From an uncultured Pseudomonadales bacterium (lineage in GTDB: Bacteria > Patescibacteriota > Microgenomatia > UBA1400 > PJMF01), in contig CAZUHV010000001.1 in assembly GCA_964620965.1 (NCBI GenBank), positions 85,839 to 149,838 on the forward strand: a stretch of DNA of 64,000 bases. The letters are read 5' to 3'. Below the pieces are notes generated by a model. It was not told where the DNA came from. It was given only the letters and a program-made list of their open reading frames with translations, and did no database searches. Shown here one piece after another: positions 34,152 through 62,641 of this stretch. Position numbers and translations under genes: made by a program. Numbering within the stretch: the stretch's first letter is position 1; each line of letters starts with the position of its first letter.

Positions 34152-34225
34152 GGCCCCATCGTCTAGCGGTTAGGACACCAGGTTCTCATCCTGGTAACCA
34201 GAGTTCGATTCTCTGTGGGGTCACC
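34152..34225 (+). tRNA. tRNA-Glu (anticodon CUC)
   Basis: Acceptor GGCCCCA/TGGGGTC. D arm TCGTCTAGCGGTTAGGACA. Anticodon stem CCAGG/CCTGG with loop TTCTCAT. T arm AGAGTTCGATTCTCT. Discriminator A then CC encoded. Confidence 0.8.
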
Positions 34226-35743
34226 TAAAGCAACACCCTGTGTATTAAAGTTAAATAATGATTGATACATAGGGTTTATTTCAGGGTTCAATGTTCCATT
34301 AAAGTCATATGTGACACCTTTGGGAAAGATTGAACCAAATAAAGCTTTTATCTGAGGTACGGTCGATTTTTTGTACGTAGCTCCTAAATCACTCAAAGTT
34401 TCTTTTATAAAAGCTGTTAGCTTGTTGATATCATATTTTTCAAGCGTTGAGTCTGCTTTGGCAACATGAGCTTTCTGTAGTTTATTCTCTATTAATGCGT
34501 TTTGTTCCATGAATATTTCATCGGTATACACACCCATCATGTTTTTTTGCACCAACACTTTTCTCATATCTTTGAGTCTTTGAATTTCATCATCTGCTAC
34601 GTTTTTGGCTTTCTTTACATTGGCAAGCCTCCTTTCATATTCTTCAACTACATACTGTGTAAATAACTCAATACATTCTTTACTTGGTGAAATGGATCTC
34701 AACAATCGAACCACTTCTTCATCTAACTGTTCAGCTCTAATAGAAGCGGCCTGACATTTAGTAGAACATCGGTAGTATGGATACTTTTTACTTCTACCTT
34801 TACTCCAACCAGCAGTTATTCCTTTGCCACACTCAGAACACTTAACAATCCTTCTTAACGGAAATGTTTTATTATTTCTAACTCGTTTTGTATTTACTAC
34901 AGGTTTAAAAACTCTTCTACCATCTAAAGCATCCTGAACTTTATAGAACTGTTCTAATGAAATCATTGGCCTGTGTTGACCTTGGACTTCTTCTTTATAA
35001 GTATCTGACGTCAAAATTCCTGCATAAAATTTATTACGAAGCATTCGTTGAACGGTAGGCACCTTTAATTTTATTCTTTTGCCTTTATGAACAGTGTATA
35101 AGCCCAGCTCGTTCATGATTTTCGTTATTTCAATGAGGCTTTTGTTTCCAAGCGCCATCAAATCCCACGCCTGCACCATCTTGTCCCATGATTCTGGGTC
35201 TTCGATTGGAAATTTGTTAACATCCATCATGTACCCAAGTGGAGGTTTTCTTGTGATTAATCCAGACTTGAACCTTGCATACATGCCATTTCTTGTTCTC
35301 TCGCTGCGTACATCATTATCATGCTGAGCAAAACTGGCCATGATAGTTTCTAGCAGTGTATCTGTTGGAGACGTTCCTGTGGGTTCTGAGGCTGAAATTA
35401 GCTGTATATTATTGCTGATCAAGGTCTTTCTGATTGAAAGATAATCTGAAGTTTGTCGAGAAAGTCGATCTAGTCTGTAGATAATAACAGCACCAAGCGT
35501 TCTTTTATTTTTCTTGCAATAATGCAGTAACTCGACTAATTCTGGACGACCAGCTATAGTTTTGGCAGACTTACCTTCCTCACGAAATATTTTGATAACT
35601 TTCAAGCCTTTTCTAATAGCTTCTTTTCGACACAGTTCTTCTTGAGTATCTAATGAAAAATTATCAACTTGCTCTTCGGTTGAAACTCTGAGGTAAATAA
35701 TTGCATCAGTTTTAGTAGTATTTTGAGCTTTATTTCTAGTCAT
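34163..35743 (-). CDS. large serine recombinase (resolvase catalytic domain, recombinase domain and zinc ribbon)
   Basis: IIYLRVSTEEQ catalytic Ser motif. Recombinase domain. Zinc ribbon CSECG...YYRCSTKC. C-terminal coiled coil. The last about 21 codons are encoded antisense to the 3' two-thirds of tRNA-Glu. Confidence 0.8.
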   Translation of the reverse strand: MTRNKAQNTTKTDAIIYLRVSTEEQVDNFSLDTQEELCRKEAIRKGLKVIKIFREEGKSAKTIAGRPELVELLHYCKKNKRTLGAVIIYRLDRLSRQTSDYLSIRKTLISNNIQLISASEPTGTSPTDTLLETIMASFAQHDNDVRSERTRNGMYARFKSGLITRKPPLGYMMDVNKFPIEDPESWDKMVQAWDLMALGNKSLIEITKIMNELGLYTVHKGKRIKLKVPTVQRMLRNKFYAGILTSDTYKEEVQGQHRPMISLEQFYKVQDALDGRRVFKPVVNTKRVRNNKTFPLRRIVKCSECGKGITAGWSKGRSKKYPYYRCSTKCQAASIRAEQLDEEVVRLLRSISPSKECIELFTQYVVEEYERRLANVKKAKNVADDEIQRLKDMRKVLVQKNMMGVYTDEIFMEQNALIENKLQKAHVAKADSTLEKYDINKLTAFIKETLSDLGATYKKSTVPQIKALFGSIFPKGVTYDFNGTLNPEINPMYQSLFNFNTQGVALGDPTENRTLVTRMRTWCPNR

Positions 35744-40262: not shown

Positions 40263-41030
40263 ATGGATACCATAACTCCTAAACAATTAGAAATCCTCAT
40301 ACTAATATATCGTTTCCGTTTCCTTAATCGTCACCAAATCCAAATACTCCTTAATCATAAAGACCCCAAACGAATAAACTCCTGGCTTAAAGATCTCAAT
40401 CAAAAAAATATCCTCGGTAGAATCTACTCAACTAAACTCAAAGAAAATACCAAACCAGCGATATACTACCTAGCTACCAAATCAAGAAAAATACTTCTTG
40501 AACAAGAAAATACTAACGAGAAAATTTTAAGAAGAGCCTACAGGGACAAAAATGCTTCTCAAAAATTAATAAATCACAGCATCTTTCTAGCCAATGTCTA
40601 TTTATTACTTAAAGAACAAGCCCTCAAAAACAAACAAGAACTTCATTTTTATACAAAAACTGATTTAGCAGAACACTACTACCTGCCATATAACCGACCA
40701 GATGTGTATATTTCCCTGAAAGGGAATGACTTAACAAAGCGTTATTTCCTAGAAATCATTGACAAAGGTACACCACGCTTTATGCTTCGAAAGAAAATCT
40801 CTCAATACATTGAGTACTTTGACGAAGGAACCTGGCAAAATAGGACGTTACATGAAAAACCATCACTTTTATTTATCTCTCCAAATCAAAATATCTACAA
40901 CTTCCTCACCAAACATATTGCTCAAGTTTTGGAGGAGGAGACTTCAGACTTACAATTTTTCCTAAGTCTGAAGTCAGAGATACAAGAAGCTGGCTTAACT
41001 GCCAACACTTGGCACCTCATCAGCGAGTAA
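40263..41030 (+). CDS. replication-relaxation family protein (PF13814-like, putative relaxase or mobilisation protein)
   Basis: N-terminal ITPKQLEILILIYRFRFLNRHQIQ winged-helix signature of the Replic_Relax family. Confidence 0.55.
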   Translation: MDTITPKQLEILILIYRFRFLNRHQIQILLNHKDPKRINSWLKDLNQKNILGRIYSTKLKENTKPAIYYLATKSRKILLEQENTNEKILRRAYRDKNASQKLINHSIFLANVYLLLKEQALKNKQELHFYTKTDLAEHYYLPYNRPDVYISLKGNDLTKRYFLEIIDKGTPRFMLRKKISQYIEYFDEGTWQNRTLHEKPSLLFISPNQNIYNFLTKHIAQVLEEETSDLQFFLSLKSEIQEAGLTANTWHLISE

Positions 41031-42495: not shown

Positions 42496-42535
42496 CGAAT
42501 TGCTCTGAGAAACTCTCAAAGCAATTAGGTATTAA
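42496..42535. repeat. 40-bp palindromic repeat, copy 1 (direct repeat of 48161..48200, 39/40 identical)
   Basis: CGAATTGCTCTGAGAAACTCTCAAAGCAATTAGGTATTAA. Contains a 13-bp-stem hairpin AATTGCTCTGAGA-aac-TCTCAAAGCAATT. Confidence 0.8.
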
Positions 42536-48064: not shown

Positions 48065-48160
48065 TTTGACCCCTTTATTATTAAAATGATATAAATTGTT
48101 ATAGAAAGCAATTGTAATCGAGTTATATAAGATAATCAAGACTAATACAATAAAAAATTT

Positions 48161-48200
48161 CGAATTGCTCTGAGAAACTCTCAAAGCAATTAAGTATTAA
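48161..48200. repeat. 40-bp palindromic repeat, copy 2
   Basis: CGAATTGCTCTGAGAAACTCTCAAAGCAATTAAGTATTAA. On the minus strand the hairpin is followed by a T-run, so it may act as the terminator of 48190..48495. Confidence 0.8.
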
Positions 48201-48495
48201 AAATCAAATAATCATACAGAAACATAACTGCCCACAAACAAAAGATTGAGATAATCAAATAAGCAAGCTTTCTATTCCAACCCCGCTTCAACTGTGCCAA
48301 CGAGCCCAACAGAATTACTATCTCAAATGGATAAGTAATAAAATCACAGTAACTTCCACACCAATTCTTTTCTAAAATAACTACATCTGTTGCAAAGCTA
48401 TTTAAACCAAAACTTTGCTGCACATCTCTAACAATATGAAACACTGAGAAAAGTACTAACAAACCAAAAACATATTTGTATGCATTCTTTCTCAT
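48190..48495 (-). CDS. hypothetical small membrane protein
   Basis: Three TM helices. ATGA overlap with the upstream nuclease gene. Confidence 0.35.
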   Translation of the reverse strand: MRKNAYKYVFGLLVLFSVFHIVRDVQQSFGLNSFATDVVILEKNWCGSYCDFITYPFEIVILLGSLAQLKRGWNRKLAYLIISIFCLWAVMFLYDYLIFNT

Positions 48496-49997: not shown

Positions 49998-52213
49998 ATT
50001 TTCTCAAGCAAACTTAAAAAGTCGTCTAATTTCTGTATTTTTTCAGGTTCATTCAACTTCATGATTTCGTGTTGATCATGCATATGTTCATGCCAGTTAT
50101 TTTCTAAAATATCATCTTTAACCAAACACTTGTCACCAATTTTTTCTAGATATGCAGAAATACTCCCCTCAGAAAGAGTCTTTTCATCCAAAGAGAAATA
50201 ATACTTGTGTCTCAAAATTCTTTCCAAGCACTTACGTACCTTACCAATTGCTTCATCAACATTTCTATTGTTATCAACTGAATCTTTAATAAACTTTACG
50301 CTTTTGAAAAATTCTTCCTCAATAACGTTTTCCACATCACACTTTACTATGCTAGAGCCTGCAGAACCTGAGTTTTTAATTTGAAGAAATTTGGTTTCAT
50401 TTTTTGGTATTTTGCTTTGCAATCTAGCCAAAAAGCTATCATCATGAGTAAGTATAATTACCTGCTCTGGCTCTTCATTTGATTGATTTTTAATTTTGAC
50501 TATAGTCCTAACCAACGCGTCCTTGCGATTTGAATCTAAACTTGAAAAAGGATCGTCAAAGACAACAATTTTTTTGTTTAAAAATTTATCTGTTTGTAAT
50601 TTTGATATAAAAATTGCAATTGCCAACAATCTTCTATCGCTATCACTTAACGTATTCCCAAAGTAATATTTATCCTTAGGCTCAATGTCGTCCTGAGATC
50701 TTTTATTTGAAATAGGAACAACTTGACTGCCAAATGCAAATTCGTAGTCAACAAAATGTGATTTTGATCTAGTTAAGTTCGAGCGACTATCTAATTTCTG
50801 TATTGAGAACTCTGCCCTAAGTTCATTTTTCAATACTTTTTCAATTTCTTTTTGATTATCTACAATTGTTTTTTTTGTCTCCTGATTAATTTCGTCTCTT
50901 AGGTTTTTCACTTCCTTCTTCTTGTCTTTGATGAGTTTTTCTGCATCAAAATAGTCTTTTGTTAAACTCACTCCTTCTTTGCTATGCCTGTATTTAGATA
51001 GCTTTAACTTTTTTAACTGATTTAGTAAATTTCGATAATCTTGTTCAGAGAATTCCTGTTTAAGTATTGAATCAAATACAGGGTGAAGTTTTTTAATTTC
51101 AATCAAGAATAATTGAAATGGTTTATCTTTTGAGATTAAATCAATCGAATAGTTTAAATTCTTTAATTTTTTATCAATTTCTTTGTCTAGATCCGCTTTA
51201 TTTTCCAGTAACTCCTTCTTATTTAACAATTCATCACAGTTAATTCCTAGAGGGTTAAGTTTTGCTATTTCTGCTTCAGGATCAAATCGCAAAAAGTTTT
51301 CTCCCGCTGATTCAATTTCTTTTTGAACTTGTCTATACGTTGCGCCAAAAACGCTCTTAAAATCTTTTATTAAATCTTTTACAGGCTCTAAGTCTTGCCC
51401 ACAAAAAACACAGTTTTTAGACTCATCTTTTAAGATAGCAACACCTTCTGAAATAAAATTCTTAGATGCACTTGCGTCTTTCCAATGATTATGAATATGA
51501 TTTTCAATGCTTACTTCAGCTGAAGTATCTAACGATTTCTCCATTGCTAACTTAAAGTTCTCAAATTTTGACGCCAATGGGGAATGCTTAATCTGTTCCT
51601 TAATTGATGAAATATTATTTAGGCGTTTAATTTCTGTTTCTTTTTTTGAAATTTTGTCATCAACACTCTCTACTTTTTCTGCTTTAAGAAATTCCTCAAA
51701 AGTTCCCAGATCAACTTTTATATATTTATTTTTTACTTTGTCTCTATCACTTTCTAAATCTGCTTGTTCATTACGAAGCCTCTTGAGAGCAAGTACTTTA
51801 TCACCTATGTTTTCTCCTACAAATATTCCATGAAGTGAAGCTTTATGTTCAAAATCAATTTGATCTCCTAGATAAACGTAATTTTGAACAAAGTTACTAT
51901 CAAATACAACAATATTTGGATTACTCCAGTTACCGTTTGATAGAGTGGAATGTTTATTATTTTCATCCAAAATATCAATCTCAGAACTTTCTGAATATCC
52001 GAAAGTCTTTTTACCCTTCAACAATCCTTGATCAGAATTTTTTAAGGATCTAAATATCGTTGTCAAAGTGCTTTTGCCATAAGTGTTATGTCCAAAAATA
52101 ACAGTTCTTTTGAAAAAACGTAATTCATCATCTCCAGAACATGTAAATTGCTTGAACTTTCCAATTCCTTTGATTTTTATAATTTTACTAATCATTTTTT
52201 CCCTTACTACCAC
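49994..52213 (-). CDS. RloC/PrrC-like ABC-type ATPase with coiled-coil zinc-hook insert, putative restriction-linked anticodon nuclease
   Basis: Walker A FGHNTYGKSTL. Long Lys/Glu coiled coil containing CVFC (CxxC hook). D-loop/Walker B VVFDDPFSSLD. C-terminal R-x3-H (RILRH) and a His cluster. Co-operonic with hsdR. Alternative start at 52195 (MISKIIKIKG). Confidence 0.55.
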   Translation of the reverse strand: MVVREKMISKIIKIKGIGKFKQFTCSGDDELRFFKRTVIFGHNTYGKSTLTTIFRSLKNSDQGLLKGKKTFGYSESSEIDILDENNKHSTLSNGNWSNPNIVVFDSNFVQNYVYLGDQIDFEHKASLHGIFVGENIGDKVLALKRLRNEQADLESDRDKVKNKYIKVDLGTFEEFLKAEKVESVDDKISKKETEIKRLNNISSIKEQIKHSPLASKFENFKLAMEKSLDTSAEVSIENHIHNHWKDASASKNFISEGVAILKDESKNCVFCGQDLEPVKDLIKDFKSVFGATYRQVQKEIESAGENFLRFDPEAEIAKLNPLGINCDELLNKKELLENKADLDKEIDKKLKNLNYSIDLISKDKPFQLFLIEIKKLHPVFDSILKQEFSEQDYRNLLNQLKKLKLSKYRHSKEGVSLTKDYFDAEKLIKDKKKEVKNLRDEINQETKKTIVDNQKEIEKVLKNELRAEFSIQKLDSRSNLTRSKSHFVDYEFAFGSQVVPISNKRSQDDIEPKDKYYFGNTLSDSDRRLLAIAIFISKLQTDKFLNKKIVVFDDPFSSLDSNRKDALVRTIVKIKNQSNEEPEQVIILTHDDSFLARLQSKIPKNETKFLQIKNSGSAGSSIVKCDVENVIEEEFFKSVKFIKDSVDNNRNVDEAIGKVRKCLERILRHKYYFSLDEKTLSEGSISAYLEKIGDKCLVKDDILENNWHEHMHDQHEIMKLNEPEKIQKLDDFLSLLEKI

Positions 52214-55047
52214 TCAAACATATCTACTATATTCTCAATAGCACTCCTCACACGATCGATGATGCTTTGACGTTCTAAAATTCTTGGGGCTTCTGGGAGA
52301 AGATCAACAATATCTTGTCCATGTGGAAGTTTTTGTGTATATAAATACTCGCCAATAATATTTTCAAACTTTTCTAGTGGAATATTTTCAGCTTGTGCTA
52401 CTTCTCGCAGTGCAGAGGAGCGTTCACTTGCCCAGAATTTCTCAAAGGCTTCTTCAACATTTTCATCTTCTCTGATCTTAGGTAGATTCTCCTCAATAAA
52501 TTTACGGATAAGTTCTTTCTTTTTGCGAAGCTTCACATCGCGATCAAATAATCTGAGAATATCTTCTGTTTTCTTCTCACGAACTACATCTGAACTAATG
52601 TCTTTAAGTCCAGCAATAAGCTGAATAATGTAGTCAAAATCAACTACATCACGAACAGTGAGCTCTAATTCAAAGTCGATTTGATCCAAAATGGATTCTT
52701 TTTCAGGCTCATGAGTTTTTCTTTCCTCATGAATATCAAGATACTTACTTTGGTAATCATAAAATTCTTGTTCTGTAATACCCAAGTCATCAAATGAGAA
52801 TTCTGCAAAGGTTTCGAGTGAAGACTTAATTCGAAGCAAATCTCTAAAGCTTTTAACAAATGCAGCCTTATCTTCTTCACCTCGCAAATCATCAACTGAA
52901 GAAACAGTAGGTACTTTTACTCGTAAGTGAGCAAGCTTTTCTTCAAACTCCTTTTTCTGAACTTCATATGGCTTCTTGAAAACAACTTCCTTAGCGTTTT
53001 CATCACCAAACAAAGCAAGAGCTTTGTCAGTATTCAGTTTAAGGTTTCTAAAAGAAACAATGTTTCCATGCGGTTTGTCAGAGTTCAGCAAACGATTTGT
53101 TCTGGAATAAGCCTGGATTAGTCCGTGATATCTCAAATTCTTATCAACGTACAAAGTGTTGAGTCTTGGGCTATCAAATCCAGTTAAGAACATGTTTACC
53201 ACAATAGTTAGATCAACTTCTTTGTTTTTAATTCGCTTCTGTAGATCTCGATAATAGTCATAGAATCTGTCAGTAGAGTAATTTGTGCCGAAATCCTTGT
53301 TGTAGTTTTTGATACAGCTTTCTAAGAAATCTCTTGAATGCTGATTTATCACATCACCCTTATCAGCAAACACGTCAACATCAAGCATGTCTGCACTATC
53401 ATCCTCATTTGCTTGATAGGTAAAAATTGTAGCGATTTTAAAATCATCAGGTTTCTTAGCAGAAAGCAGAGTGTAGTATTTCTTTAATATCTCAATACTT
53501 GGAGTGCAAAAAAGAGCATTAAACTTGCCATTCTTTGTTTTACGCTTCCAATCATGAAGGATATATTCAGCAATTTTTTCTATTCGCTCATCACTTTCGA
53601 GAACTTCTTTGGTGTCAATACCTTCAACCATAGTTTCAGCAAAGATGTCAGCATCTAGAGTATCAGGGTCTTTTTTCTTGTACTTACCAACATACTCAAC
53701 TGCAAAACCAAGCACATTATTGTCATCAATAGCGTGGGTAATAATATAGCGGTGCAAGCATTCACCAAATACATCTTTTGTAGTTACACCACCAACATTG
53801 TTATCAGCAAATATCGGTGTTCCAGTAAAACCAAAGAGTTGAGCTTTATTAAAATGACTCTTTATTCTATTGTGGGTTAATCCAAACTGACTGCGGTGAC
53901 ACTCATCAAAAATAATGACTACTTTTTCATCTTGCAGATCTTCAAATTGTTTAAGATACGATTCTCTGGAAACTGCAATATCTAGCTTTTGGATTGTAGT
54001 AACTATGAGTTTTCTCTTTGGCTCTTTAAGCTGTTTTACTAAGTTACGAGTATTATCCGTTCCATCAACAGAACCATCAGAAAAGTGATTAAACTCTTTT
54101 GTTGTTTGAATATCGAGGTCTTTACGATCAACTACAAAGATAACTTTTTTAATTTCGGGTAACTGTGAAAGAATCTGACTGGCTTTGTATGAAGTCAAGG
54201 TTTTTCCAGAACCAGTGGTATGCCAAATATAGCCATTCTGGTTAGTTTCTTTAACCTTTTGCTCAATAGCTCTGACTGCATAGTACTGATAAGGGCGGAG
54301 TACCATTGGAATTTTAAGAGATTCATGCAACACAATATATTCAGCAATCATGGATGAGATTTTGCATTTTTCTAAAAACGCCTCAGCAAATTGATTAAGT
54401 TGTGTAATTTTTTTGTTTTCTTCATCTGTCCAATAGAAGGTTTGTTCAAATGATTGCTTTGGATTATTAGAAAAGTATTTTGTGTTTACACCATTAGAGA
54501 TAATAAAAATCTGGACGTATTCGAATAAAGTTCCTGAAAAAGAATGTTTGTGATAGCGTTGAATCTGATTGAAAGCCTCCTTCATTTCAACGCCACGGCG
54601 TTTGAGCTCAATTTGCACTAAGGGAAGACCATTTATGAGAAGGGTAACGTCATAGCGATTTTCATACCTTCCAGCTTGAGTGACTTGATTTGTGACTTGG
54701 TACTCATTCTTGCACCACTTATCCATGTTGAAAAATCGAACCCAGAACTTTGTCTCATCATCACGAGTCAGCACAAATCTATCTCGCAAAGTTTTTGCTT
54801 TTACAAAGCGGTCACCTTTTTCAAGATGATTGAGTATGCGAGAAAATTCGGTATCAGAGAAAATTGTGTTGTTAAACTTTTCTAGTTGTGACTTAAGATT
54901 TTGATTTAATGACTCTACATCTGGCAAAGAAACCCTATCAAAACCCAAGTTTCCAAGTTGTGCTATTAATTCGTTTTCTAGTTGTAGTTCTGATTGCGCC
55001 ATAATTTTATCTATACAAACATTTGTTGTAACAGTCCCTTTTTCCAC
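52207..55047 (-). CDS. hsdR: type I restriction enzyme R subunit
   Basis: SF2 helicase motif I GYIWHTTGSGKTLTS. DEAH box FDECHRSQ. N-terminal nuclease region. The likely true start is 55002 (MAQSELQ). Confidence 0.85.
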   Translation of the reverse strand: MEKGTVTTNVCIDKIMAQSELQLENELIAQLGNLGFDRVSLPDVESLNQNLKSQLEKFNNTIFSDTEFSRILNHLEKGDRFVKAKTLRDRFVLTRDDETKFWVRFFNMDKWCKNEYQVTNQVTQAGRYENRYDVTLLINGLPLVQIELKRRGVEMKEAFNQIQRYHKHSFSGTLFEYVQIFIISNGVNTKYFSNNPKQSFEQTFYWTDEENKKITQLNQFAEAFLEKCKISSMIAEYIVLHESLKIPMVLRPYQYYAVRAIEQKVKETNQNGYIWHTTGSGKTLTSYKASQILSQLPEIKKVIFVVDRKDLDIQTTKEFNHFSDGSVDGTDNTRNLVKQLKEPKRKLIVTTIQKLDIAVSRESYLKQFEDLQDEKVVIIFDECHRSQFGLTHNRIKSHFNKAQLFGFTGTPIFADNNVGGVTTKDVFGECLHRYIITHAIDDNNVLGFAVEYVGKYKKKDPDTLDADIFAETMVEGIDTKEVLESDERIEKIAEYILHDWKRKTKNGKFNALFCTPSIEILKKYYTLLSAKKPDDFKIATIFTYQANEDDSADMLDVDVFADKGDVINQHSRDFLESCIKNYNKDFGTNYSTDRFYDYYRDLQKRIKNKEVDLTIVVNMFLTGFDSPRLNTLYVDKNLRYHGLIQAYSRTNRLLNSDKPHGNIVSFRNLKLNTDKALALFGDENAKEVVFKKPYEVQKKEFEEKLAHLRVKVPTVSSVDDLRGEEDKAAFVKSFRDLLRIKSSLETFAEFSFDDLGITEQEFYDYQSKYLDIHEERKTHEPEKESILDQIDFELELTVRDVVDFDYIIQLIAGLKDISSDVVREKKTEDILRLFDRDVKLRKKKELIRKFIEENLPKIREDENVEEAFEKFWASERSSALREVAQAENIPLEKFENIIGEYLYTQKLPHGQDIVDLLPEAPRILERQSIIDRVRSAIENIVDMFEW

Positions 55048-56237
55048 TCTTTTGCTTCTTTTATTTGGTTAACTTTTAATTCTATTAACTGGTCAATGGA
55101 TGAAACAAAATCAACGATTTTTGCTTGTTCTTCTTCGGAAGGATATGGTATCGGCATATCCATTAAATCTGAGGTTGATATTGCCATACGGTCGTGACGT
55201 GCTCCGTAGTTTGCAACTTTTTTCATATATTTATGCCAAAGACTAGTGTCGAAATATTTTTCATAAAAATACTTGTTTCCTTTTTTCAATTCAAGAACTG
55301 TATATAATGGAGACATTACACCAGTTTGGAGTGAATTCATTTTCATAGGACCAACGGGAGCACTTGTTGATATTCTAGGGTTGTATACAAAGTCATCAAT
55401 TTCAACAACATAATAATTCATTAAATTATTCTGATTCACAATATCTCTATCAAAATAATCATTTTGGCTCACAATCCCTTCTGAAGCTGAATTAGTCAAA
55501 ACATGATTTATTTTATTGTTAGTATTCTTTTTTGTTTTTCTTAAAAAAATATCTTTGAGTTTTCTCATTTCCCAATCTGGGTATTTTTTACTATCTTTAC
55601 CATTAAATCTTAATTCTTTTGTAAAAATCTTTTGAGTCATTCCTTTCTTATATTCTTCAAGCGTATCCTTTTGTTTTTCTAGGTTAATAATCCAACCATT
55701 TATTGTTGATAAAAAAGATGCCAATTTTTTTTGTTCGTCAATGGTTGGAATATTTACTTTAATTGATGAAAAATTTTCATAGAATAAGTATTGTCTTACT
55801 CCACCCTCAACATATCTTTTGACAAATCTATTAAATAAGTCAGACTTAAAAAAATGATACATAAATATATCATCAACATTGTCTGTTGTTGAAAAACAAA
55901 CATAAAGTGAGCTAATGATGACATTGTCTAAATCACCACTAAATCCAATGGAACCCACATTTATTCTGGCAGGGTTATATGCAAATGTATTTCTCTTAAC
56001 TACTTTATACATTGAAGTATCATAATTTCTCTCATTACTATCAAGTCCATCAAATTGTTCAGATTGTGGTAAAAAACCTCTTACATTATTAATCGAATAT
56101 ATTGGATATTTTTTTCCACTTTTATTTTTATTATTTTTTTTCTTTGTAATCTCACCAAGTTTATATTGAGTCCACATTCCAAAGAATCCTGGGAACCTCA
56201 ATTGTGGCTTTGCTTGCATATTTTTACTACTTTTCAT
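55011..56237 (-). CDS. hsdS: type I restriction-modification specificity subunit
   Basis: Two target-recognition domains separated by conserved helical spacers (LEKQKDTLEEYKKGMTQKIF ... LKVNQIKEAKEWKKGLLQQMF). Confidence 0.8.
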   Translation of the reverse strand: MKSSKNMQAKPQLRFPGFFGMWTQYKLGEITKKKNNKNKSGKKYPIYSINNVRGFLPQSEQFDGLDSNERNYDTSMYKVVKRNTFAYNPARINVGSIGFSGDLDNVIISSLYVCFSTTDNVDDIFMYHFFKSDLFNRFVKRYVEGGVRQYLFYENFSSIKVNIPTIDEQKKLASFLSTINGWIINLEKQKDTLEEYKKGMTQKIFTKELRFNGKDSKKYPDWEMRKLKDIFLRKTKKNTNNKINHVLTNSASEGIVSQNDYFDRDIVNQNNLMNYYVVEIDDFVYNPRISTSAPVGPMKMNSLQTGVMSPLYTVLELKKGNKYFYEKYFDTSLWHKYMKKVANYGARHDRMAISTSDLMDMPIPYPSEEEQAKIVDFVSSIDQLIELKVNQIKEAKEWKKGLLQQMFV

Positions 56238-57816
56238 ACTTAAAAGGATTGTCTATTCCTAACTCATCACAAAATGTATCTAGTTCTTTTCTATATTTTT
56301 GTTCTTTATGTTGATAATCTTTCAAATTTTTTGCAACTAGATCTAAATCCACAGGCTCTTCCTCTTCAAATGAATCAATATATCTAGGTATATTGAGATT
56401 AAAGTCATTTTCATATATCTCTTTCAGACTAACTCTACGAGAATATTTATCAACTTCTTTTCTTTCATTATATGTATGAAATATTTTATCAATGTGACTA
56501 TCACTAAGACGGTTTTGTGTGCCAACCTTTTCAAATTCGCTTGATGCATCAATAAAAAAAATATCATCATCTTCTTGTCTGCATTTTTTGAAAACTAATA
56601 CTATCGTTGGGATGCCTGTTCCATAAAACAAGTTTGCTGGCAAGCCAATAACAGCATCTAAGTAATTTTGCTTCTCAATAATATATTGTCTAATAGTTGC
56701 ATTTGACCCTCCAGTGAAAAGCACGCCATGTGGCAAAATAACAGCCATAGTTCCATTTTCGGTCAGGTGGTAAAGCATATGTGTCACAAATGCATAATCA
56801 GCTCTACTTTTAGGAGCTAACCTTCCATATTGTGAAAACCTTTCATCATGTAACAAAGCTGGATCTGACTCTCCCTTCCATTTTGCTGAAAATGGAGGAT
56901 TGGCTACCACTGCCTCAGCTTGCAGATCTATGTGCATATCATCTGTAAGCGTGTCACCTTGTCTAATGCTGAAATGATCAAAGTGAACTCCATGAAGGAT
57001 CATATTCATGCGAGCTAAGTTGTATGTAGTCGGGTTAAGCTCTTGTCCATAATAGGAAACTACGTCTGCATACTCACCAATTCTTAAGAGAAGAGAACCA
57101 GATCCACAGGTTGGGTCATAGACTGATTTAACTCGTTTTTTGCCATGAGTCACAATCTTTGCAAGAAGTCTAGAAACTTGAGCTGGAGTATAGAACTCTC
57201 CGCCTTTTTTACCTGCCCCTGCGGCAAACTCACCAATTAGATACTCATATGCATCACCAAGCAAGTCACTTTTTGTGTCTTCAAGTTTAAAATCAATACC
57301 ACTAAGCAGAGTCAGCACTTCAACAATTACTTCATTCTTTTTGTTTTCTGACTTACCCAACTTGGTTGAAGTTAAATCTACGTCATCAAATAATCCTTTG
57401 AAATCATCTTCGCTAGCTGTTCCCATTGAGGTTTGCTCAATAGAGTTAAGGACATTCTTGAGGTTTTCTAAAATAAAAATATCTTGACCTTTAACTTCAC
57501 CATTACCTTTTCTGACAATGTAAGAAAAAAGCTCTGTAGGTTTGAGGAAAAAGCCTAAGTGATCAATGGTAGCTTTTTTAATATGCTCGACAATCTGTTG
57601 ACCTTCGTCAGTTGAGTCATCTACCTCAGCAAAAGAGAATTTTTCACTAGCCAGAAGTTTTTCATCAATATAGCGAGCAAGTTTTTCTGAAAGATATTTA
57701 TAGAAAATGAAGCCAAGAATATAGTTTTTATATTCGTCTGCATTCATTTTTCCCCGGAGAACATTGGCTACAGCCCAAAGTTGCTTTTCAAGTAATCGTT
57801 TTTGTTCTCCAGACAT
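56227..57816 (-). CDS. hsdM: type I restriction-modification N6-adenine DNA methyltransferase subunit
   Basis: N-terminal HsdM_N (LWAVANVLRG). SAM motif DPTCGSGSLL. Catalytic NPPF (VANPPFSAKW). Confidence 0.85.
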   Translation of the reverse strand: MSGEQKRLLEKQLWAVANVLRGKMNADEYKNYILGFIFYKYLSEKLARYIDEKLLASEKFSFAEVDDSTDEGQQIVEHIKKATIDHLGFFLKPTELFSYIVRKGNGEVKGQDIFILENLKNVLNSIEQTSMGTASEDDFKGLFDDVDLTSTKLGKSENKKNEVIVEVLTLLSGIDFKLEDTKSDLLGDAYEYLIGEFAAGAGKKGGEFYTPAQVSRLLAKIVTHGKKRVKSVYDPTCGSGSLLLRIGEYADVVSYYGQELNPTTYNLARMNMILHGVHFDHFSIRQGDTLTDDMHIDLQAEAVVANPPFSAKWKGESDPALLHDERFSQYGRLAPKSRADYAFVTHMLYHLTENGTMAVILPHGVLFTGGSNATIRQYIIEKQNYLDAVIGLPANLFYGTGIPTIVLVFKKCRQEDDDIFFIDASSEFEKVGTQNRLSDSHIDKIFHTYNERKEVDKYSRRVSLKEIYENDFNLNIPRYIDSFEEEEPVDLDLVAKNLKDYQHKEQKYRKELDTFCDELGIDNPFKYEK

Positions 57817-57937: not shown

Positions 57938-57965
57938 TTGATATACACCAGACTACTGATATAAT
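57938..57965 (+). promoter_or_regulatory. sigma70-like promoter upstream of the T4SS-like operon
   Basis: TTGATA - 16 nt - TATAAT. A hairpin AGCTGCC-n9-GGTAGCT plus T7 follows in the roughly 100-nt leader at 58005..58034. Confidence 0.4.
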
Positions 57966-58079
57966 CTGATACAATTTACAACCAAAAGTAAAGCGTTATA
58001 ACAAGAGCTGCCCACTAGTGAGGTAGCTTTTTTTGTAACACCTGCCCAACAAACTTTAATTAGTGAAAGGGTCGTGTTT

Positions 58080-58412
58080 ATGAAAAAACTCATAGTTCTC
58101 CAAAGCATATTACTTACTTCCTTAGTCGTGGCGAGTCCAGCATTTGCTCAGTCCGCAGAAGTAGGACAAATTCAATCATTTATCCAAGAAGTGATTCAGA
58201 TCATGGTCACTTTGTCTGGCTTTATCGCAGCAGGCTTTATTGTCTGGGGCGGAGTTGGTTACATTACTAGCTCTGGAAATCCAGAAGCTTTAGAAAAATC
58301 TAAAAAGACTATTCTGTATTCTGCAGTCGGGCTGACCTTAGTACTCGGTGCGTTTGTTATCTCAAACATGGTGAGCCAGGTAGCAACTACTGCATTTGGA
58401 TCTGGAATGTAA
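58080..58412 (+). CDS. VirB2/TrbC-like pilin
   Basis: Signal peptide ending AFAQS, then two hydrophobic helices separated by SSGNPEALEKSKKT. The ORF track starts at GTG 58074. The ATG at 58080 has an AAAGGG RBS. Confidence 0.5.
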   Translation: MKKLIVLQSILLTSLVVASPAFAQSAEVGQIQSFIQEVIQIMVTLSGFIAAGFIVWGGVGYITSSGNPEALEKSKKTILYSAVGLTLVLGAFVISNMVSQVATTAFGSGM

Positions 58413-58437
58413 TTGATTAGAAAAGGAATACGTATTG

Positions 58438-59736
58438 ATGAGAAGAGTACTATCAACTATTGGAACAACCGCACTTGTTTTCCTTTTCTTTAGTTCTCCT
58501 GTTTTTGCTCAATCAACTAACCCTGATGTCATAGAATATACAAACAGTACATTACAAATCATCACTTTAATAGCGACCGCATCAGCGGTCTTTTTTTTAG
58601 TTAAAGCAGGATATCTCTACATCACCTCAGCTGGAAAACCTGAAGTTCTTGAGTCTGCCAAGAAAACTATCCGTAATGCAGTTATTGGCTTAACTTTAGT
58701 TTTAGCTGCAAATGTTGTCACCTCTGTTTTTCAGCATGCTTTAAATTCGCAAACAACTACTGGCTCTGGCACACCCATAGATATCGTCAGTATAGAAGCT
58801 GTTGAACCATCTGAAGGACTCACTCAAGTTTTAATTGATGCCATTGGAGGCTTTATCCAAAATATTGTGGAGAGTTCTACTGAGCCAATTGTGAATGGGG
58901 TGCTTGGATACCTGACAACCACACCAACACTTTTAAACAATGAGGTGGTTCGCAATTTTTGGTTTATTTCAGTCGGTATTGTGGACGCTTTATTCATCTT
59001 GGTTGTAGCCCTAATGGGCTTGCAAGTCATGAGTGCTAGTACCTTTGGTTTTGATGAAGTAGAGCTTAAACAACTGCTTCCAAGGTTAGGACTTACTTTC
59101 TTGGCTGCAAATATTTCACTCTTTCTAGCAGACTACGCCATTATCACCTGCAATATGTTGGTAAAAGTTATCTTAGATTCAACAGGAGGACTGAACCATG
59201 CTTGGATAGAAGCTGCTTTTAACCCTACAGCAGTCATTTCTGGAACTACGCCACTGATCATTTTGATATTTATGGTGCTGTTTTTAATTGTCTCAATCGT
59301 GTTACTGCTTATGTACATCAGTAGGCTCATTTTTATTTCCCTTGGGGCAGTTTTGTCACCATTTATCTTTCTGCTTTCAGCTCTGCCTAAATTTTCTGAC
59401 TTTGCCTTGATTGCCATAAAGACTTACCTTGTTAGTATTTTTATCGTGTTTGTTCATGTGGTGATTATTCAGCTCGCCAGCTCATTTTTAACTCTGCCAG
59501 ACCACAGTGAAAACTCAATCATTTCAATTGCCGTCGGGATTGGACTTTTTATCACCTTACTTAAAACCCCAAACCTCATGATTCAGATGGTGATGTATAC
59601 CGCTAATTCTGGAATAATGAAAAAGCTCGGGAACCAAATTATTAACGTGATGACAACAGATAACGCATCCGTTGCTAGTAGAGCTCAAGCTCAAAATACT
59701 GCCTCAAAACTAACTAGAAAGGCCATCAAAATATGA
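58438..59736 (+). CDS. fusion of VirB2-like pilin module to VirB6/TrbL-like polytopic membrane protein
   Basis: The first roughly 100 aa are a paralogue of the preceding pilin (VFAQS...SAGKPEVLESAKKT...). These are followed by at least 6 TM helices typical of VirB6. ATGA overlap with the next gene. Confidence 0.5.
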   Translation: MRRVLSTIGTTALVFLFFSSPVFAQSTNPDVIEYTNSTLQIITLIATASAVFFLVKAGYLYITSAGKPEVLESAKKTIRNAVIGLTLVLAANVVTSVFQHALNSQTTTGSGTPIDIVSIEAVEPSEGLTQVLIDAIGGFIQNIVESSTEPIVNGVLGYLTTTPTLLNNEVVRNFWFISVGIVDALFILVVALMGLQVMSASTFGFDEVELKQLLPRLGLTFLAANISLFLADYAIITCNMLVKVILDSTGGLNHAWIEAAFNPTAVISGTTPLIILIFMVLFLIVSIVLLLMYISRLIFISLGAVLSPFIFLLSALPKFSDFALIAIKTYLVSIFIVFVHVVIIQLASSFLTLPDHSENSIISIAVGIGLFITLLKTPNLMIQMVMYTANSGIMKKLGNQIINVMTTDNASVASRAQAQNTASKLTRKAIKI

Positions 59737-60239
59737 GAAGCCAAGTCATACCAGCTCAAATAACCACAGTAGAAGATAAGATTGCAGGCAACTTTAGTCT
59801 GACACAGATCATGCTACTGCTTATGCCAGTCTTGATTGCAACATTTATCTACACTTTCCTACCACCTACCATGACTTTTGTTATCTATAAGCTAGTTCTA
59901 GCAAGTATCTTTGCAGTTTTAAGTATCACGCTAGCTGTCAGAGTCAAAGGCAGAATCATCTCCAGTTGGTTAGTTGTTTTGATTCGGTACAACATTAGAC
60001 CAAAGTATTACATCTATAACAAAAACTCAGTGATTTACCGAGAAGTTATAAAGCCAGAAGTTCAAAATATTGTTGTTAAACAGAAACATGATGAAAAAGT
60101 TGCACAAAAACAACTTAACTCCCCAGATATCAAAGATGTATTAAAACTTCGCCATCTTCTAGACACAACTGATTTCAATCTAACCTATCGCTCTGGCAAG
60201 AAAGGAGGACTCAATGTGGCTTTTGAAAAAATCTCTTAA
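59733..60239 (+). CDS. VirB3/PrgI-like small two-TM protein
   Basis: N-terminal hydrophilic region, two adjacent TM helices, cytoplasmic tail. Sits between the VirB6-like and VirB4 genes. Confidence 0.4.
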   Translation: MRSQVIPAQITTVEDKIAGNFSLTQIMLLLMPVLIATFIYTFLPPTMTFVIYKLVLASIFAVLSITLAVRVKGRIISSWLVVLIRYNIRPKYYIYNKNSVIYREVIKPEVQNIVVKQKHDEKVAQKQLNSPDIKDVLKLRHLLDTTDFNLTYRSGKKGGLNVAFEKIS

Positions 60240-60834
60240 CAAAATTAGCTCTCGTAACCAAATTGCTATCAAAGAAGTTCGTGATGGAATCTTGGTTCTA
60301 CCAAATAACGAACACCGACTGATTATTGAAACTTCCTCAGTTAACTTTGAGCTTAAAAGTGAAGCGGAACAAGATGTATTAATTGATAGCTTTCAAACAT
60401 TTCTAAACTCACTGCCCTCTCAACTGCAAATCCTGATTCGCATTCGTGAAGTAGATATTGACCAATACGTTGATTCCATTGATCTACTCAAAGAAACGGA
60501 AGATGAAAAGCAATACATAGAACAAATTAATGACTACACTCAATTTATTCGCCAACTCGTATCTGGCAACAAAATCTTGTCTCGCAAGTTTTACATCGTC
60601 CTACCTTACAAACCGGAAACCAAAGGCAATACTTTTGAGCTAGCCCAAGCTCAACTCAATTTAACTCAAGATATGGTAATTAAAGCTCTAGAAAAACTAG
60701 GAATGAAGGCAAGGAAGCTCGATAGCTTAGAAGTTTTACATCTCTTTTATAGCTTCTACAACAAGGGACAGATAAAAACTCAGGAATTAACCAGCACTAC
60801 TATGAAAGCAATACTACAACACAACTATGTTTAA
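60214..60834 (+). CDS. VirB4 N-terminal domain protein (split VirB4, part 1)
   Basis: Pattern AIKEVRDGILVLPNNEHRLIIETSSVNFELKSEAEQ...FQTFLNSLPSQLQI resembles the VirB4/TcpF N-terminal domain. Its stop overlaps the next start (ATGTTTAA). Confidence 0.45.
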   Translation: MWLLKKSLNKISSRNQIAIKEVRDGILVLPNNEHRLIIETSSVNFELKSEAEQDVLIDSFQTFLNSLPSQLQILIRIREVDIDQYVDSIDLLKETEDEKQYIEQINDYTQFIRQLVSGNKILSRKFYIVLPYKPETKGNTFELAQAQLNLTQDMVIKALEKLGMKARKLDSLEVLHLFYSFYNKGQIKTQELTSTTMKAILQHNYV

Positions 60835-62641
60835 TACTGTTCAAAACTACTACCACAACTTACAAAAATGGAAGCGAAAAAAGGTTCGTAAGTTTAAAAC
60901 CCAACAAGAGAAAAAACGAAGAGAACGCCTTTCACTTCAGTTTAGTTTTGGTGAACAAGATCAAGTTGACTTAATTTCTTATTCTGGCTTGATGGAAGAA
61001 TCTACCTACCTACAAATGGGTGATACCTATGTTCGAACGCTTTTTATCTCTGGCTACCCATATGTTGCTAATGTTGGTTGGCTCAATATGCTAATTAACT
61101 TCAACCATGACTTAGATATTTCATATCACATTGAGCACGTTGACCCTTTGATGGCATTGCCAAAACTGAATCGAAAAATTACTGAGCTTGAGTCAACCAA
61201 ACGAAGCATGCTAAAGGCAGGAAAAGTGATTGGTTCTGAAATCACTGACCCACTTGAATCTGCTATGGAACTGAAAGACAAAATCCAAAGAGGTCAGGAA
61301 AAACTGTTTCAAATTTCTATTTACATGACCTTGAGTGCAAATAGTTTGGAAGAGCTCAATAAAACCACACAAGTTCTTGAAACCATCATGGCATCTAGAA
61401 TGTTTTACATCAAAACTGCCACTTTCCAACAACTTGAAGGCTTGCAATCAATTCTGCCAAGAGGCGAAAACCAACTCAATCAAAAACGAAACTTGGATAG
61501 CTCCAGTGCAGCTTTAACTTTCCCATTTGTTTCATCCGAACTTGTCCAAGAATCAGGTATTTTATATGGAATTAATAAATCAAATAATTCACTGGTAATT
61601 GTAGATCGCTTCTCTTTAAATAACGCTAACTCAATTATCTTTGCTCAATCAGGAAGTGGTAAAAGTTACACTGCCAAAGTTGAAATTTTAAGACAACTAA
61701 TGCAACAAACAAAAGTTATCGTTATTGATCCTGAACGGGAGTATAAACAACTAGCAAAATCAGTTAAAGGCACATACATTCGCTTATCTGCCACTTCTAA
61801 AGAAAAGATTAACCCCTTTGATTTCTCACTCAAATCATTTACGGGTCAAAACGGATTAGCTGAACATATTCAAGATCTAACTGAAATTATTTCCCTGATG
61901 GCAGGCTCACTCACAGATGAAGAGCGTGCTGTAGTCGATAAAGCTTTAATTGAAACCTACAAACAATTTGGCATTAGCATGCGAAAAGGCAACTACGAAG
62001 CTGATCAAAAATTTCCGCTACTTAAAGATTTCTATAAGGTGCTCAAGAAAATGAAACAAAAAGAGCTATGTCACAGGCTGGATAAATTCGTTTCTGGCTC
62101 GCTTTCCAGTGTGTTTGATTCTCAAACCAATGTAGATCTTTCCAACCGCTTAGTCATTTTTGATATCAAAGATTTGGATGAGTCACTCAGGCAAATAATG
62201 ATTCTAGCCACTGCTAATTTTGTACACTCTGAAGTTAAATCTAACCCACAAAAACGTATCTTAGTAATTGATGAAGCCTGGTTGCTTTTGCAACATGAAG
62301 AAAGCGCGAGGTTCTTAGCAGGATTGGTCAGACGTGCACGCAAACACTACTTGGGAGTCACTCTCATTTCTCAGCAAGCTAATGACTTTTTAAACCAAGA
62401 ATATGGCAGAGCAATTGCCTCGCAATCATCACTCAGAATATTGATGAAGCAGGATACAACTTCAATTAAAAAAGTAGTCCAGGAATTTAACTTGAGTGAG
62501 TACGAGCAACAATTTCTACTTACTTGTGACCGAGGTGAAGCTTTAATAATTGCTGACCAAAACCATGTGGCTGTAAAAATAGTTGCCTCAGAAAAAGAAC
62601 ATCCAATGTTAACCACTGATCCGAAAGATTTATATTTATAG
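60827..62641 (+). CDS. virB4: VirB4/TrbE-family type IV secretion ATPase (split VirB4, part 2)
   Basis: Walker A AQSGSGKSYT. Walker B RILVIDEAWLLL. GVTLISQQANDF motif. Confidence 0.75.
   Translation: MFNTVQNYYHNLQKWKRKKVRKFKTQQEKKRRERLSLQFSFGEQDQVDLISYSGLMEESTYLQMGDTYVRTLFISGYPYVANVGWLNMLINFNHDLDISYHIEHVDPLMALPKLNRKITELESTKRSMLKAGKVIGSEITDPLESAMELKDKIQRGQEKLFQISIYMTLSANSLEELNKTTQVLETIMASRMFYIKTATFQQLEGLQSILPRGENQLNQKRNLDSSSAALTFPFVSSELVQESGILYGINKSNNSLVIVDRFSLNNANSIIFAQSGSGKSYTAKVEILRQLMQQTKVIVIDPEREYKQLAKSVKGTYIRLSATSKEKINPFDFSLKSFTGQNGLAEHIQDLTEIISLMAGSLTDEERAVVDKALIETYKQFGISMRKGNYEADQKFPLLKDFYKVLKKMKQKELCHRLDKFVSGSLSSVFDSQTNVDLSNRLVIFDIKDLDESLRQIMILATANFVHSEVKSNPQKRILVIDEAWLLLQHEESARFLAGLVRRARKHYLGVTLISQQANDFLNQEYGRAIASQSSLRILMKQDTTSIKKVVQEFNLSEYEQQFLLTCDRGEALIIADQNHVAVKIVASEKEHPMLTTDPKDLYL

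Follow-up and report, generated by a model that had tools for sequence, protein, structure and literature searches.

A VirB2-type pilin module joined to a VirB6/TrbL-like domain in a conserved secretion cassette of Patescibacteria, likely part of an integrative conjugative element

Two consecutive plus-strand genes at positions 58080-59736 of a 64,000-nucleotide stretch of DNA from an uncultured member of the Patescibacteriota (contig CAZUHV010000001.1; the whole stretch is called the window here) are predicted to encode a free VirB2/TrbC-type pilin of a type IV secretion system (T4SS) and a longer protein in which a second pilin module continues into a polytopic VirB6/TrbL-like domain (Table 1). 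This arrangement had been proposed in an earlier note on the sequence, which described two tandem genes sharing one N-terminal architecture of signal peptide, two transmembrane (TM) helices and a similar intervening loop, and the signal-peptide ends and loop motifs that it quoted are indeed present in both genes at these positions. The open frame of gene 1 spans 58074-58412, with its likely start at the ATG at 58080; that of gene 2 spans 58435-59736, with the stop codon ending at 59736, and its likely start at the ATG at 58438 gives a protein of 432 aa. Homologues of the two proteins agree with these starts in length (110 and 432 aa). AAAGG-type ribosome-binding sites lie 8-14 nt upstream of both ATGs.

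Both proteins open with a basic n-region, a hydrophobic core and an A/V-F-A site followed by Q-S, after which two hydrophobic helices are joined by a loop. By hydropathy, the signal peptide of the free pilin comprises residues 1-23 (ending SPAFA, then QS) and is followed by TM1, the loop SSGNPEALEKSKKTI and TM2; in the fusion protein the signal peptide comprises residues 1-24 (ending SPVFA, then QS) and the hairpin residues 25-103, with the loop SAGKPEVLESAKKTI between TM1 and TM2. The VirB2/TrbC pilin layout that the earlier note saw in both modules is borne out by curated Pfam thresholds: the free pilin exceeds those of PF18895 (T4SS_pilin; E 1e-10, 41.8 bits against a threshold of 26.6) and PF04956 (TrbC/VirB2; E 1e-8, 35.3 bits against 27.9), and the fused module exceeds that of PF18895 (E 8e-10, 39.1 bits against 26.6) and does not match PF04956. 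Aligned with the fusion protein, the free pilin is 39% identical over 114 aa (BLASTP with composition adjustment, E 9e-17), in agreement with the paralogy suggested by that note. A likeness of the modules through composition alone was considered and is ruled out by this E value together with the conserved hydrophilic loop. Hydropathy and an AlphaFold2 (AF2) model both give the features of a VirB2-type pilin, namely a predicted cleavable signal peptide and two TM helices with a short charged loop, and the AF2 hairpin of the fusion protein (helices 29-63 and 68-102) has a predicted local distance difference test (pLDDT) score of 81-88. In alignments, the A-x-A site and the loop are kept across orthologues of the pilin modules, the loop motif G-x-P-x-x-L-x-x-A-K-K-T being under equal constraint in the fused copy, and the pilin is encoded in a T4SS locus together with VirB4 and VirB6. 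Free pilins also carry an invariant C-terminal A-x-x-A-F-G motif (58383-58409 in the window; alignment A4) that fused modules do not have; it could be a processing or subunit-contact site.

Beyond the pilin module, the fusion protein runs for about 330 more residues. The earlier note had counted at least six TM helices in this part, and here hydropathy shows six hydrophobic segments and the AF2 model seven long helices, which fits a polytopic protein with at least five long hydrophobic helices. This region consists of an amphipathic helix (GLTQVLIDA...QNIVESS), five long hydrophobic helices and a polar C-terminal helix; the amphipathic helix, which comes right after the linker, is the most conserved segment of the whole protein. 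The AF2 model, made from an alignment of 80 diverse sequences (a model from 33 close homologues was poor, with a pLDDT of 56, and was replaced), has a pLDDT of 76.7 and a predicted TM-score (pTM) of 0.69 and consists of a signal helix, a hairpin, a disordered stretch and seven long helices, the C-terminal helices having a core pLDDT of 80-94. Seven long helices are likewise reported for the VirB6 of R388, and five of these are hydrophobic (Mace et al. 2022, PMC9259494).

Evidence that this domain is VirB6/TrbL-like comes mainly from its family. The window protein matches TrbL_4 weakly (E 0.09, 12.6 bits against a threshold of 27), with a match that spans 260 of the 276 profile positions, and because of this weakness the C-terminal 324 residues were searched separately. 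Among 1.84 billion cluster representatives they gave 508 matches at E <= 1e-3, 47 of them at E <= 1e-30. In a set of 79 full-length relatives of the C-terminal domain, TrbL_4 was matched in 25 (best E 1e-12), TrbL (PF04610) in 16 (best E 1e-7) and T4SS_pilin in 43, and single relatives unite both parts: P0131 and P0139 carry T4SS_pilin N-terminally and TrbL C-terminally, with P0139 scoring 28.2 bits against the PF04610 threshold of 25.9, and P0169 carries T4SS_pilin with TrbL_4. The best match of the family profile among PDB sequences is the VirB6 protein TrwI of R388 (E 0.01; profile positions 253-414 against TrwI 138-317). In a Foldseek search with the AF2 model, the highest probabilities also belong to TrwI chains (0.92, TM-score 0.45, E 0.07-0.9), and the top rows by E-value are G protein-coupled receptors (GPCRs) and helical repeat proteins. 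Finally, the gene stands next to virB3 and virB4 in an order that is invariant in related loci and in distant relatives. The VirB6/TrbL assignment made in the earlier note is therefore well supported at family level, through TrbL models, TrwI and synteny with PrgI, TrsD and VirB4, and marginal for the window sequence by itself.

The pilin module and the VirB6-like domain are joined by a linker of 23 residues (104-126) with a high content of S, T, P and G, for which disorder (AF2 pLDDT below 50 for residues 104-127) and an extracytoplasmic location are predicted. It is the most variable part of the protein, with a column entropy of about 2.2 bits, and its length is exactly 23 in all 79 orthologues aligned; within the same alignment it shows neither a conserved motif nor an A-x-A site. 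A length that is fixed while the sequence is free fits a spacer setting the distance of the hairpin better than it fits a cleavage site, an argument that we take as suggestive and not strong because the family has few indels overall.

The fusion is a regular feature of its family. A homologue search with the fusion protein returned 907 proteins, and of the best 120 nearly all have a length of about 430 aa, an identity of 60-95% and a match to PF18895, with several also carrying TrbL_3 (PF19590); the layout is found in more than 100 protein clusters at 60-95% identity. A locus scan limited to one genome per species returned 80 loci, and every one not cut by a contig end has an open reading frame (ORF) of 425-461 aa with both parts. 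This conservation of the long ORF among related loci rules out a frameshift or assembly artefact as its source. An exact look-up of the window fusion protein matched no record, and a tblastn search with it against 72,556 plasmids gave no match.

The two genes open a six-gene cassette in the order pilin, pilin::VirB6, PrgI, TrsD, VirB4 and M23 peptidase, in which the reading frames of the four downstream genes overlap or abut; the PrgI gene, for instance, overlaps the fusion stop codon by 4 nt (ATGA). The TrsD-like protein corresponds to the N-terminal part of a CD1110-type VirB4 (NCBIfam, positions 11-178 of 752, E 4e-14) and also matches the TrsD/TraD family (E 3e-7), and the VirB4 protein that follows takes up positions 183-733 of the NCBIfam conju_CD1110 model (370 bits against a cut-off of 325). 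Since TrsD has its own ORF, about 206 aa long, in every related locus, this split is not a pseudogene, and the gene corresponds to the TrsD component already reported for Patescibacteria. The M23 enzyme stands in the place of the cell-wall hydrolase (the VirB1 role) and keeps this position among related loci, with a CHAP hydrolase instead in the distant relative L084. We detected no VirB5, VirB8-10 or VirB11 in the six-gene cassette.

The identical gene order was found in all 80 related loci with flanks long enough to show it. Compared with the window, VirB4 has a mean identity of 79%, the free pilin of 67%, the VirB6 domain of 66%, the fused module of 58% and PrgI of 47%. The closest genome, that of locus L004 (an uncultured Patescibacteria bin), is 87-92% identical at the nucleotide level from hsdR through the M23 gene, except for a divergent hsdS. 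The named loci are mostly of the Microgenomates type (Pace-, Shapiro-, Davies-, Levy- and Gottesmanbacteria) and WWE3, with some Saccharibacteria. About one-third of the related loci are labelled as organisms outside the Candidate Phyla Radiation (uncultured Gammaproteobacteria/Pseudomonadales, Micrarchaeota, Methanobacterium, Anaerolineae and others). Automatic labelling or mis-binning is the probable cause, and some of the contigs concerned measure about 1 Mb, as is typical of genomes of that radiation. Several genomes hold two diverged cassettes, as in the pairs L004/L007 (both on contig CAJQIG010000001.1), L005/L010, L031/L036, L040/L041 and L046/L071, each pair from the same assembly, and in one genome with two copies, about 250 kb apart, the fusion proteins are 95% and 88% identical to that of the window.

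Table 1. Features of the window that bear on the pilin::VirB6 gene and its cassette
Feature	Position	Strand	Basis
Free VirB2/TrbC-type pilin, 110 aa	58080..58412	+	PF18895, PF04956, hydropathy, orthologue alignment
Fusion gene, N-terminal part: predicted signal peptide and paralogous pilin hairpin	58438..58746	+	PF18895, BLASTP, AF2
Fusion gene, linker, 23 residues (104-126)	58747..58815	+	AF2 pLDDT, column entropy
Fusion gene, VirB6/TrbL-like polytopic domain, residues 127-432	58816..59736	+	Family profiles, AF2, Foldseek, alignment
PrgI/VirB3-like protein, 168 aa	59733..60239	+	PrgI PF12666, E 7.5e-7, 30.1 bits against 27
TrsD-like protein, 206 aa, VirB4 N-terminal domain as its own gene	60214..60834	+	NCBIfam
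VirB4-type ATPase, 604 aa, monoderm CD1110 type	60827..62641	+	NCBIfam; Pfam P-loop_TraG, AAA_10
M23 peptidoglycan endopeptidase, 203 aa, N-terminal TM segment	62642..63253	+	Peptidase_M23, E 8e-31
Promoter-like site, TTGATA-16 nt-TG-TATAAT	57938..57965	+	11 of 12 consensus positions
Intrinsic-terminator-like element, GACCGC-ATCA-GCGGTC + T8	58575..58598	+	Scan; 6-bp GC-rich stem in coding sequence
tRNA-Glu	34152-34225	+	tRNA scan
Large serine recombinase, 526 aa, candidate integrase	34163..35743	-	Resolvase, Recombinase, Zn_ribbon_recom; NCBIfam XisF/CcrB-like
VirD4-like coupling protein, 878 aa	36024..38660	+	TrwB_AAD_bind, TraG-D_C
Replic_Relax-family protein, 255 aa, candidate relaxase/replication initiator	40263..41030	+	PF13814, E 2e-13

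Comparison of the two kinds of pilin module suggests how the fusion may have arisen. Across 65 loci the nearest neighbour of each module stays within its class (free with free in 65 of 65, fused with fused in 65 of 65), and mean identity is 68% among free modules and 55% among fused ones, as against 33% between the classes (27-44% within one locus). From these neighbours and identities we conclude that the duplication is old and that both copies are under purifying selection. A hidden Markov model of the module finds it in 44 of the 79 family representatives, including all closer relatives that are not cut off N-terminally, and more distant relatives of the C-terminal domain (E 1e-12 to 1e-9) have a single N-terminal hydrophobic segment. 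The loci of two unfused relatives consist of a free pilin, a VirB6-like protein (TrbL_3) and PrgI, with VirB4 next in L089, and only 3-32 nt separate the pilin and virB6 genes. The distant fused relative P0131 lies in a locus with a free pilin, the fusion, a PrgI-like protein, a TraC-like protein, VirB4, a CHAP hydrolase and a coupling protein. As a free pilin gene stands directly upstream of virB6 in the unfused relatives, the simplest history suggested by these sequences is that the pilin gene was duplicated and that the proximal copy then fused to virB6.

Two candidate regulatory elements accompany the genes. The 263-nt spacer between the divergent hsdM and pilin genes contains a promoter-like site, 115 nt before the pilin ATG; it is the top-scoring site of the region, yet the number of such sites there is no higher than in shuffled sequence, so that its assignment is suggestive only. 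Within gene 2, an element resembling an intrinsic terminator begins 137 nt after the fusion ATG, with a folding energy of -11 kcal/mol in near-identical orthologous segments. Of 77 orthologous loci compared in codon-aligned sequences, 36 have the stem together with an unbroken T8, 31 have neither and only 10 have one of the two. Where loci encode F-F-L after the stem, the codons TTTTTTTT(A/G) are used in 36 of the 40 with a stem and in four of the 25 without one. Stem pairing holds in 76.8% of cells, as against 29-58% when the partners are slid, and double changes that alter amino acids preserve the pairing, such as ACC..GTC to GCC..GCC. The element looks like an intrinsic terminator or attenuator that would raise the output of free pilin over that of the fusion and the machinery, and such an attenuator fits a major subunit encoded beside a stoichiometric base.

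Further upstream, the window also contains genes expected of a mobile element. Between 34152 and 41780 lie a tRNA-Glu gene, a large serine recombinase whose 3' end overlaps the tRNA-Glu gene on the opposite strand, a VirD4-like coupling protein, a Replic_Relax-family protein and a protein with an ArdC-N-like domain. The coupling protein, about 19 kb upstream of the cassette, is probably the partner of the cassette. Some 17 kb upstream of the cassette are taken up by genes for metabolism and defence, among them those of a DUF2779 nuclease, an AAA_13 ATPase and a type I restriction-modification system. In other genomes the same genes adjoin the cassette: recombinase homologues are found upstream of the coupling protein in three loci (L020, L053 and L083), coupling-protein homologues directly upstream of the cassette in 10 other genomes (the best four at 55-66% identity) and Replic_Relax homologues between coupling protein and cassette in 11 other genomes. 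The integrase, coupling and cassette genes of the window are contiguous in L020, L047, L053 and L054, and in L084 a coupling protein with 42% identity over 790 aa lies directly downstream of the cassette. Other flanks of related cassettes are highly variable, with PLD nucleases, DUF2958 proteins, reverse transcriptases of diversity-generating retroelements, methylases, heavy-metal ATPases and Abi/Qat defence genes.

Since the recombinase, coupling protein and Replic_Relax genes adjoin the cassette elsewhere and all occur in the window, the cassette likely belongs to an integrative conjugative element (ICE). A candidate integrase, a coupling protein and mating-pair-formation genes, as expected of an ICE, are all present within the window, and the sequence from 34 kb to past the end of the window at 64 kb resembles an ICE split by cargo genes. 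The Replic_Relax (PF13814) protein is the one relaxase candidate in the window, where a match to a classical MOB family was neither sought nor found; members of this family are not known from biochemical work to nick an oriT. We found no att-type repeats of the 3' end of the tRNA-Glu gene between 33000 and 64000 of the window; if there is an element, its right end lies beyond the window.

Several features of the intervening region deserve mention in their own right. A direct repeat of 52 nt, 92% identical, occurs at 42484-42535 and 48149-48200 and includes an imperfect inverted repeat of 13 bp (AATTGCTCTGAGA...TCTCAAAGCAATT). Between the copies lies a 5.7-kb block with genes of sugar and other metabolism (GNAT, GH4, methyltransferase, aminotransferase, NUDIX and epimerase); the repeat could mark the boundary of inserted cargo, or else act as a terminator or regulatory hairpin common to both sites. 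Between this block and the restriction system, on the minus strand at 48492-52213, lie genes for a DUF2779/Cas4-like nuclease (501 aa) and an AAA_13 ATPase (739 aa), which are probably a defence gene pair; DUF2779 proteins recur near the cassettes of L008 and L084. The type I restriction-modification system itself adjoins the cassette (52207-57816, minus strand). Compared with L004, its HsdR is 98% identical (931-aa alignment) and its HsdM 86%, beside an HsdS that is 30% identical, which indicates that the specificity subunit has been swapped.

Taking these observations together, we propose with moderate confidence that genes 1 and 2 open a monoderm-type T4SS operon of a Patescibacteria ICE, in which the pilin hairpin fused to VirB6 seeds or anchors the polymerization of the free pilin. 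The mature hairpin of a pilin usually lies with both ends outside, and the VirB6 protein of Agrobacterium tumefaciens has an N-terminus that faces outside. After cleavage of its signal peptide, the fused hairpin would sit in the membrane with both ends outside and the K/R-rich loop inside, and its exit on the outside would continue into the outside-facing N-terminus of VirB6. The VirB6 domain would then oligomerize, as a pentamer by analogy with R388 TrwI, placing five tethered pilin hairpins beside those VirB6 helices that are proposed to recruit VirB2. In the published model of R388, VirB2 has a recruitment site on a VirB6 TM helix and a five-start pilus is built on the VirB6 pentamer (PMC9259494); similarly, the VirB2-like protein PrgF has been modelled as a pilus on a pentameric PrgH/VirB6, and pilin-like proteins are encoded next to virB6 in most Gram-positive systems (bioRxiv 10.64898/2025.12.18.695078). 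The tethered hairpins could act as a permanent adapter or first ring that seeds or anchors the polymerization of free pilin, which VirB4/TrsD would extract from the membrane while supplying the energy, and the intragenic terminator-like hairpin may ensure that more free pilin is made than fusion protein and machinery.

A number of observations weigh against this proposal or parts of it. Taken alone, the window protein is below the Pfam threshold for every TrbL model, Foldseek returned no significant match for the AF2 model (best E 0.03), and a profile of free pilins searched against PDB sequences recovered no solved T4SS pilin. As to the attenuator, the co-occurrence of stem and T8 (Fisher p 2e-11) is uncorrected for phylogeny, and the covariation within the stem is modest, being matched by 24 of 500 shuffles. 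The published model of growth from the base has no covalently retained first layer, and new subunits would have to insert above the tethered one. Contact between hairpin and VirB6 and a fit of the hairpin to a pilus lattice are hypothetical, the AF2 model being of a single chain, and the pilus itself is predicted here from genes alone.

The alternative that survives best concerns what the cassette is for. It may be a chromosomal T4SS for interaction with a host, of the kind reported as essential in Saccharibacteria, whose pilin pair builds a conduit to the host cell; we regard this as possible, though doubtful. In published work T4SS genes are essential for epibiotic growth and usually not near a relaxase, and Patescibacteria homologues of the coupling protein are common and usually far from virB4 (PMC10633639; PMC12102498), which would suit a system that is not mobile. 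Against this, the recombinase (three loci), coupling protein (10) and Replic_Relax protein (11) adjoin the cassette elsewhere, several genomes hold two copies of it, and its flanks vary greatly and contain many defence and cargo genes. In S. epibionticum the VirB6-like protein also differs from the fusion, in being longer than 1000 aa and having no pilin domain. In any case this alternative bears on the cargo and not on the role of the fusion; one and the same pilus base could serve both uses.

Two further alternatives assign a different role to the fused hairpin. It may be a structural anchor only, a former pilin whose helices now serve as extra TM segments for insertion, oligomerization or docking to VirB3/VirB4 and never touch the polymerizing pilin. 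The fused modules do evolve somewhat faster than the free ones (55% against 68% mean identity) and are without the C-terminal A..AFG motif of free pilins; however, conservation in the fused copy extends beyond the hydrophobic helices to the hydrophilic loop motif, with G67, P69, K76 and T78 invariant in orthologues, and the signal peptide and the outside-in-outside topology are both predicted to be kept, so that we consider this reading unlikely. Still harder to favour, in our view, is the possibility that the protein is a polyprotein, cut in or near the linker to release a second (minor or tip) pilin and a normal VirB6, with the fusion doing nothing other than ensuring a 1:1 ratio. Such a cut might be expected from the fact that TM2 runs from inside to outside as a signal peptide does and is followed by a conserved A-L-x and a flexible stretch rich in S, T and G, and from the pilin loop motif that the fused module retains. 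The sequence after TM2, however, is VFQHALNSQ, which holds no signal-peptidase site of the A-x-A type; the linker has no conserved sequence that a protease might recognize and, with its fixed length, suits a spacer better; and the only conserved protease gene of the cassette encodes the cell-wall M23 enzyme. That the C-terminal domain is a generic polytopic transporter or permease beside T4SS genes by chance, the outcome that the earlier note had named as its own refutation and for which the weak TrbL_4 match and the GPCRs and helical repeats heading the Foldseek rows by E-value might speak, is highly improbable, given that no transporter family was matched at any threshold (Pfam, NCBIfam and the 79 relatives), that family members reach TrbL models with TrwI as the best PDB match, and that VirB3/VirB4 synteny is invariant.

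The fusion has several wider consequences. A natural and strongly conserved VirB2::VirB6 fusion whose tether is fixed in length is independent evidence, of the 'Rosetta stone' kind, for direct contact between the two proteins at 1:1 stoichiometry, and it supports the view that pili assemble directly on VirB6. The nucleation of T4SS pili is still a model, and proposals that VirB2 assembles on VirB6 rest largely on co-evolution, docking and AlphaFold; a system of six genes with one free and one tethered pilin is a compact test case for pilus seeding. Linkage to genes for an integrase, a coupling protein and a Replic_Relax protein suggests conjugation as the function of at least this type of T4SS in Patescibacteria, which bears on the role of these systems. 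Going further, and tentatively, we raise the idea that these loci form a distinct and widespread T4SS clade in which the VirB2 base layer is covalently built into VirB6 and which serves self-transmissible Patescibacteria ICEs with a serine integrase, a VirD4-like coupling protein and a Replic_Relax protein. We think this less probable than not. Should such ICEs with a covalent base exist, the fusion would be the 'missing' VirB6 of Microgenomatia and evidence for pilus-based conjugation in ultra-small bacteria.

The earlier note had called the arrangement unusual, and relative to the literature this stands; within Patescibacteria it does not, since the fusion is common and strongly conserved there. 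In the literature searched, which left most subscription journals outside its scope, we found no description of a fusion of VirB2, or of any pilin, to VirB6. In precomputed Pfam results, matches to PF18895 and to TrbL models already fall on the same proteins, so the fusion is latent in databases yet, as far as we can tell, undescribed, and the T4SS type itself is already known.

Among characterized machines, that of R388 resembles the one described here in having a VirB6 of long, mostly hydrophobic helices (TrwI/TrwL; Mace et al. 2022, PMC9259494), and the sequence similarity of the fusion family to TrwI is marginal (E 0.01). In R388, VirB2 and VirB6 are separate and work in a diderm machine with VirB5, VirB7-10 and VirB11, whereas here they are joined in a six-gene, monoderm-type cassette.

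Gram-positive systems come closer in layout. On pCF10 the genes run in the order PrgF (VirB2-like), PrgH (VirB6), PrgI (VirB3), PrgJ (VirB4) and PrgK (hydrolase). This system shares with the cassette a pilin-like protein with two TM helices, VirB6, VirB3, VirB4 and a hydrolase (ter Beek et al. 2025 preprint, 10.64898/2025.12.18.695078); modules of this type have no reported fusion, and their VirB4 is unsplit, in contrast to the separate TrsD and VirB4 here. In sequence the pilin-like proteins of Gram-positive systems hardly resemble VirB2, whereas the free pilin of the window passes the Pfam threshold for TrbC/VirB2. The ICE of Mycoplasma is similar in other respects: the free pilin scores 39.9 bits against the NCBIfam Mbov_0395 pilin-like family (cut-off 40) and VirB4 scores 291 bits against Mbov_0397, both below the equivalog cut-offs, and a wall-less or monoderm ICE setting is common to both. 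The Mycoplasma VirB4 model includes a VirB3-like N-terminus (matched weakly by the PrgI-like protein of the window at positions 2-117), whereas VirB3, TrsD and VirB4 are three genes here.

The nearest published relatives are the pilin-array T4SSs of Patescibacteria (Wang et al. 2023, PMC10633639; Quinonero-Coronel et al. 2025, PMC12102498), with which the cassette shares PF18895-type pilins, PrgI/VirB3, a separate TrsD, a monoderm-type VirB4 and tandem pilin genes next to virB4. In those arrays, which are hypervariable in Saccharimonadia (PMC12102498), the pilins are free and highly divergent (mean identity 25%) and VirB6 is separate, as is the VirB6-like protein of S. epibionticum (PMC10633639; PMC12102498), whereas the free and fused modules here are both well conserved. 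The Patescibacteria T4SS survey discusses only a VirB3-VirB4 fusion, of which it found none (PMC12102498). VirB6 is scarce in Microgenomatia according to this 2025 survey, whose table assigns each protein a single label and lists no lengths; the scoring of pilin::VirB6 proteins as pilins may explain the scarcity reported there. Unlike in the published arrays, one of the two 'tandem pilins' described here is a VirB6-like protein, and an integrase, a coupling protein and a Replic_Relax protein are linked to the system.

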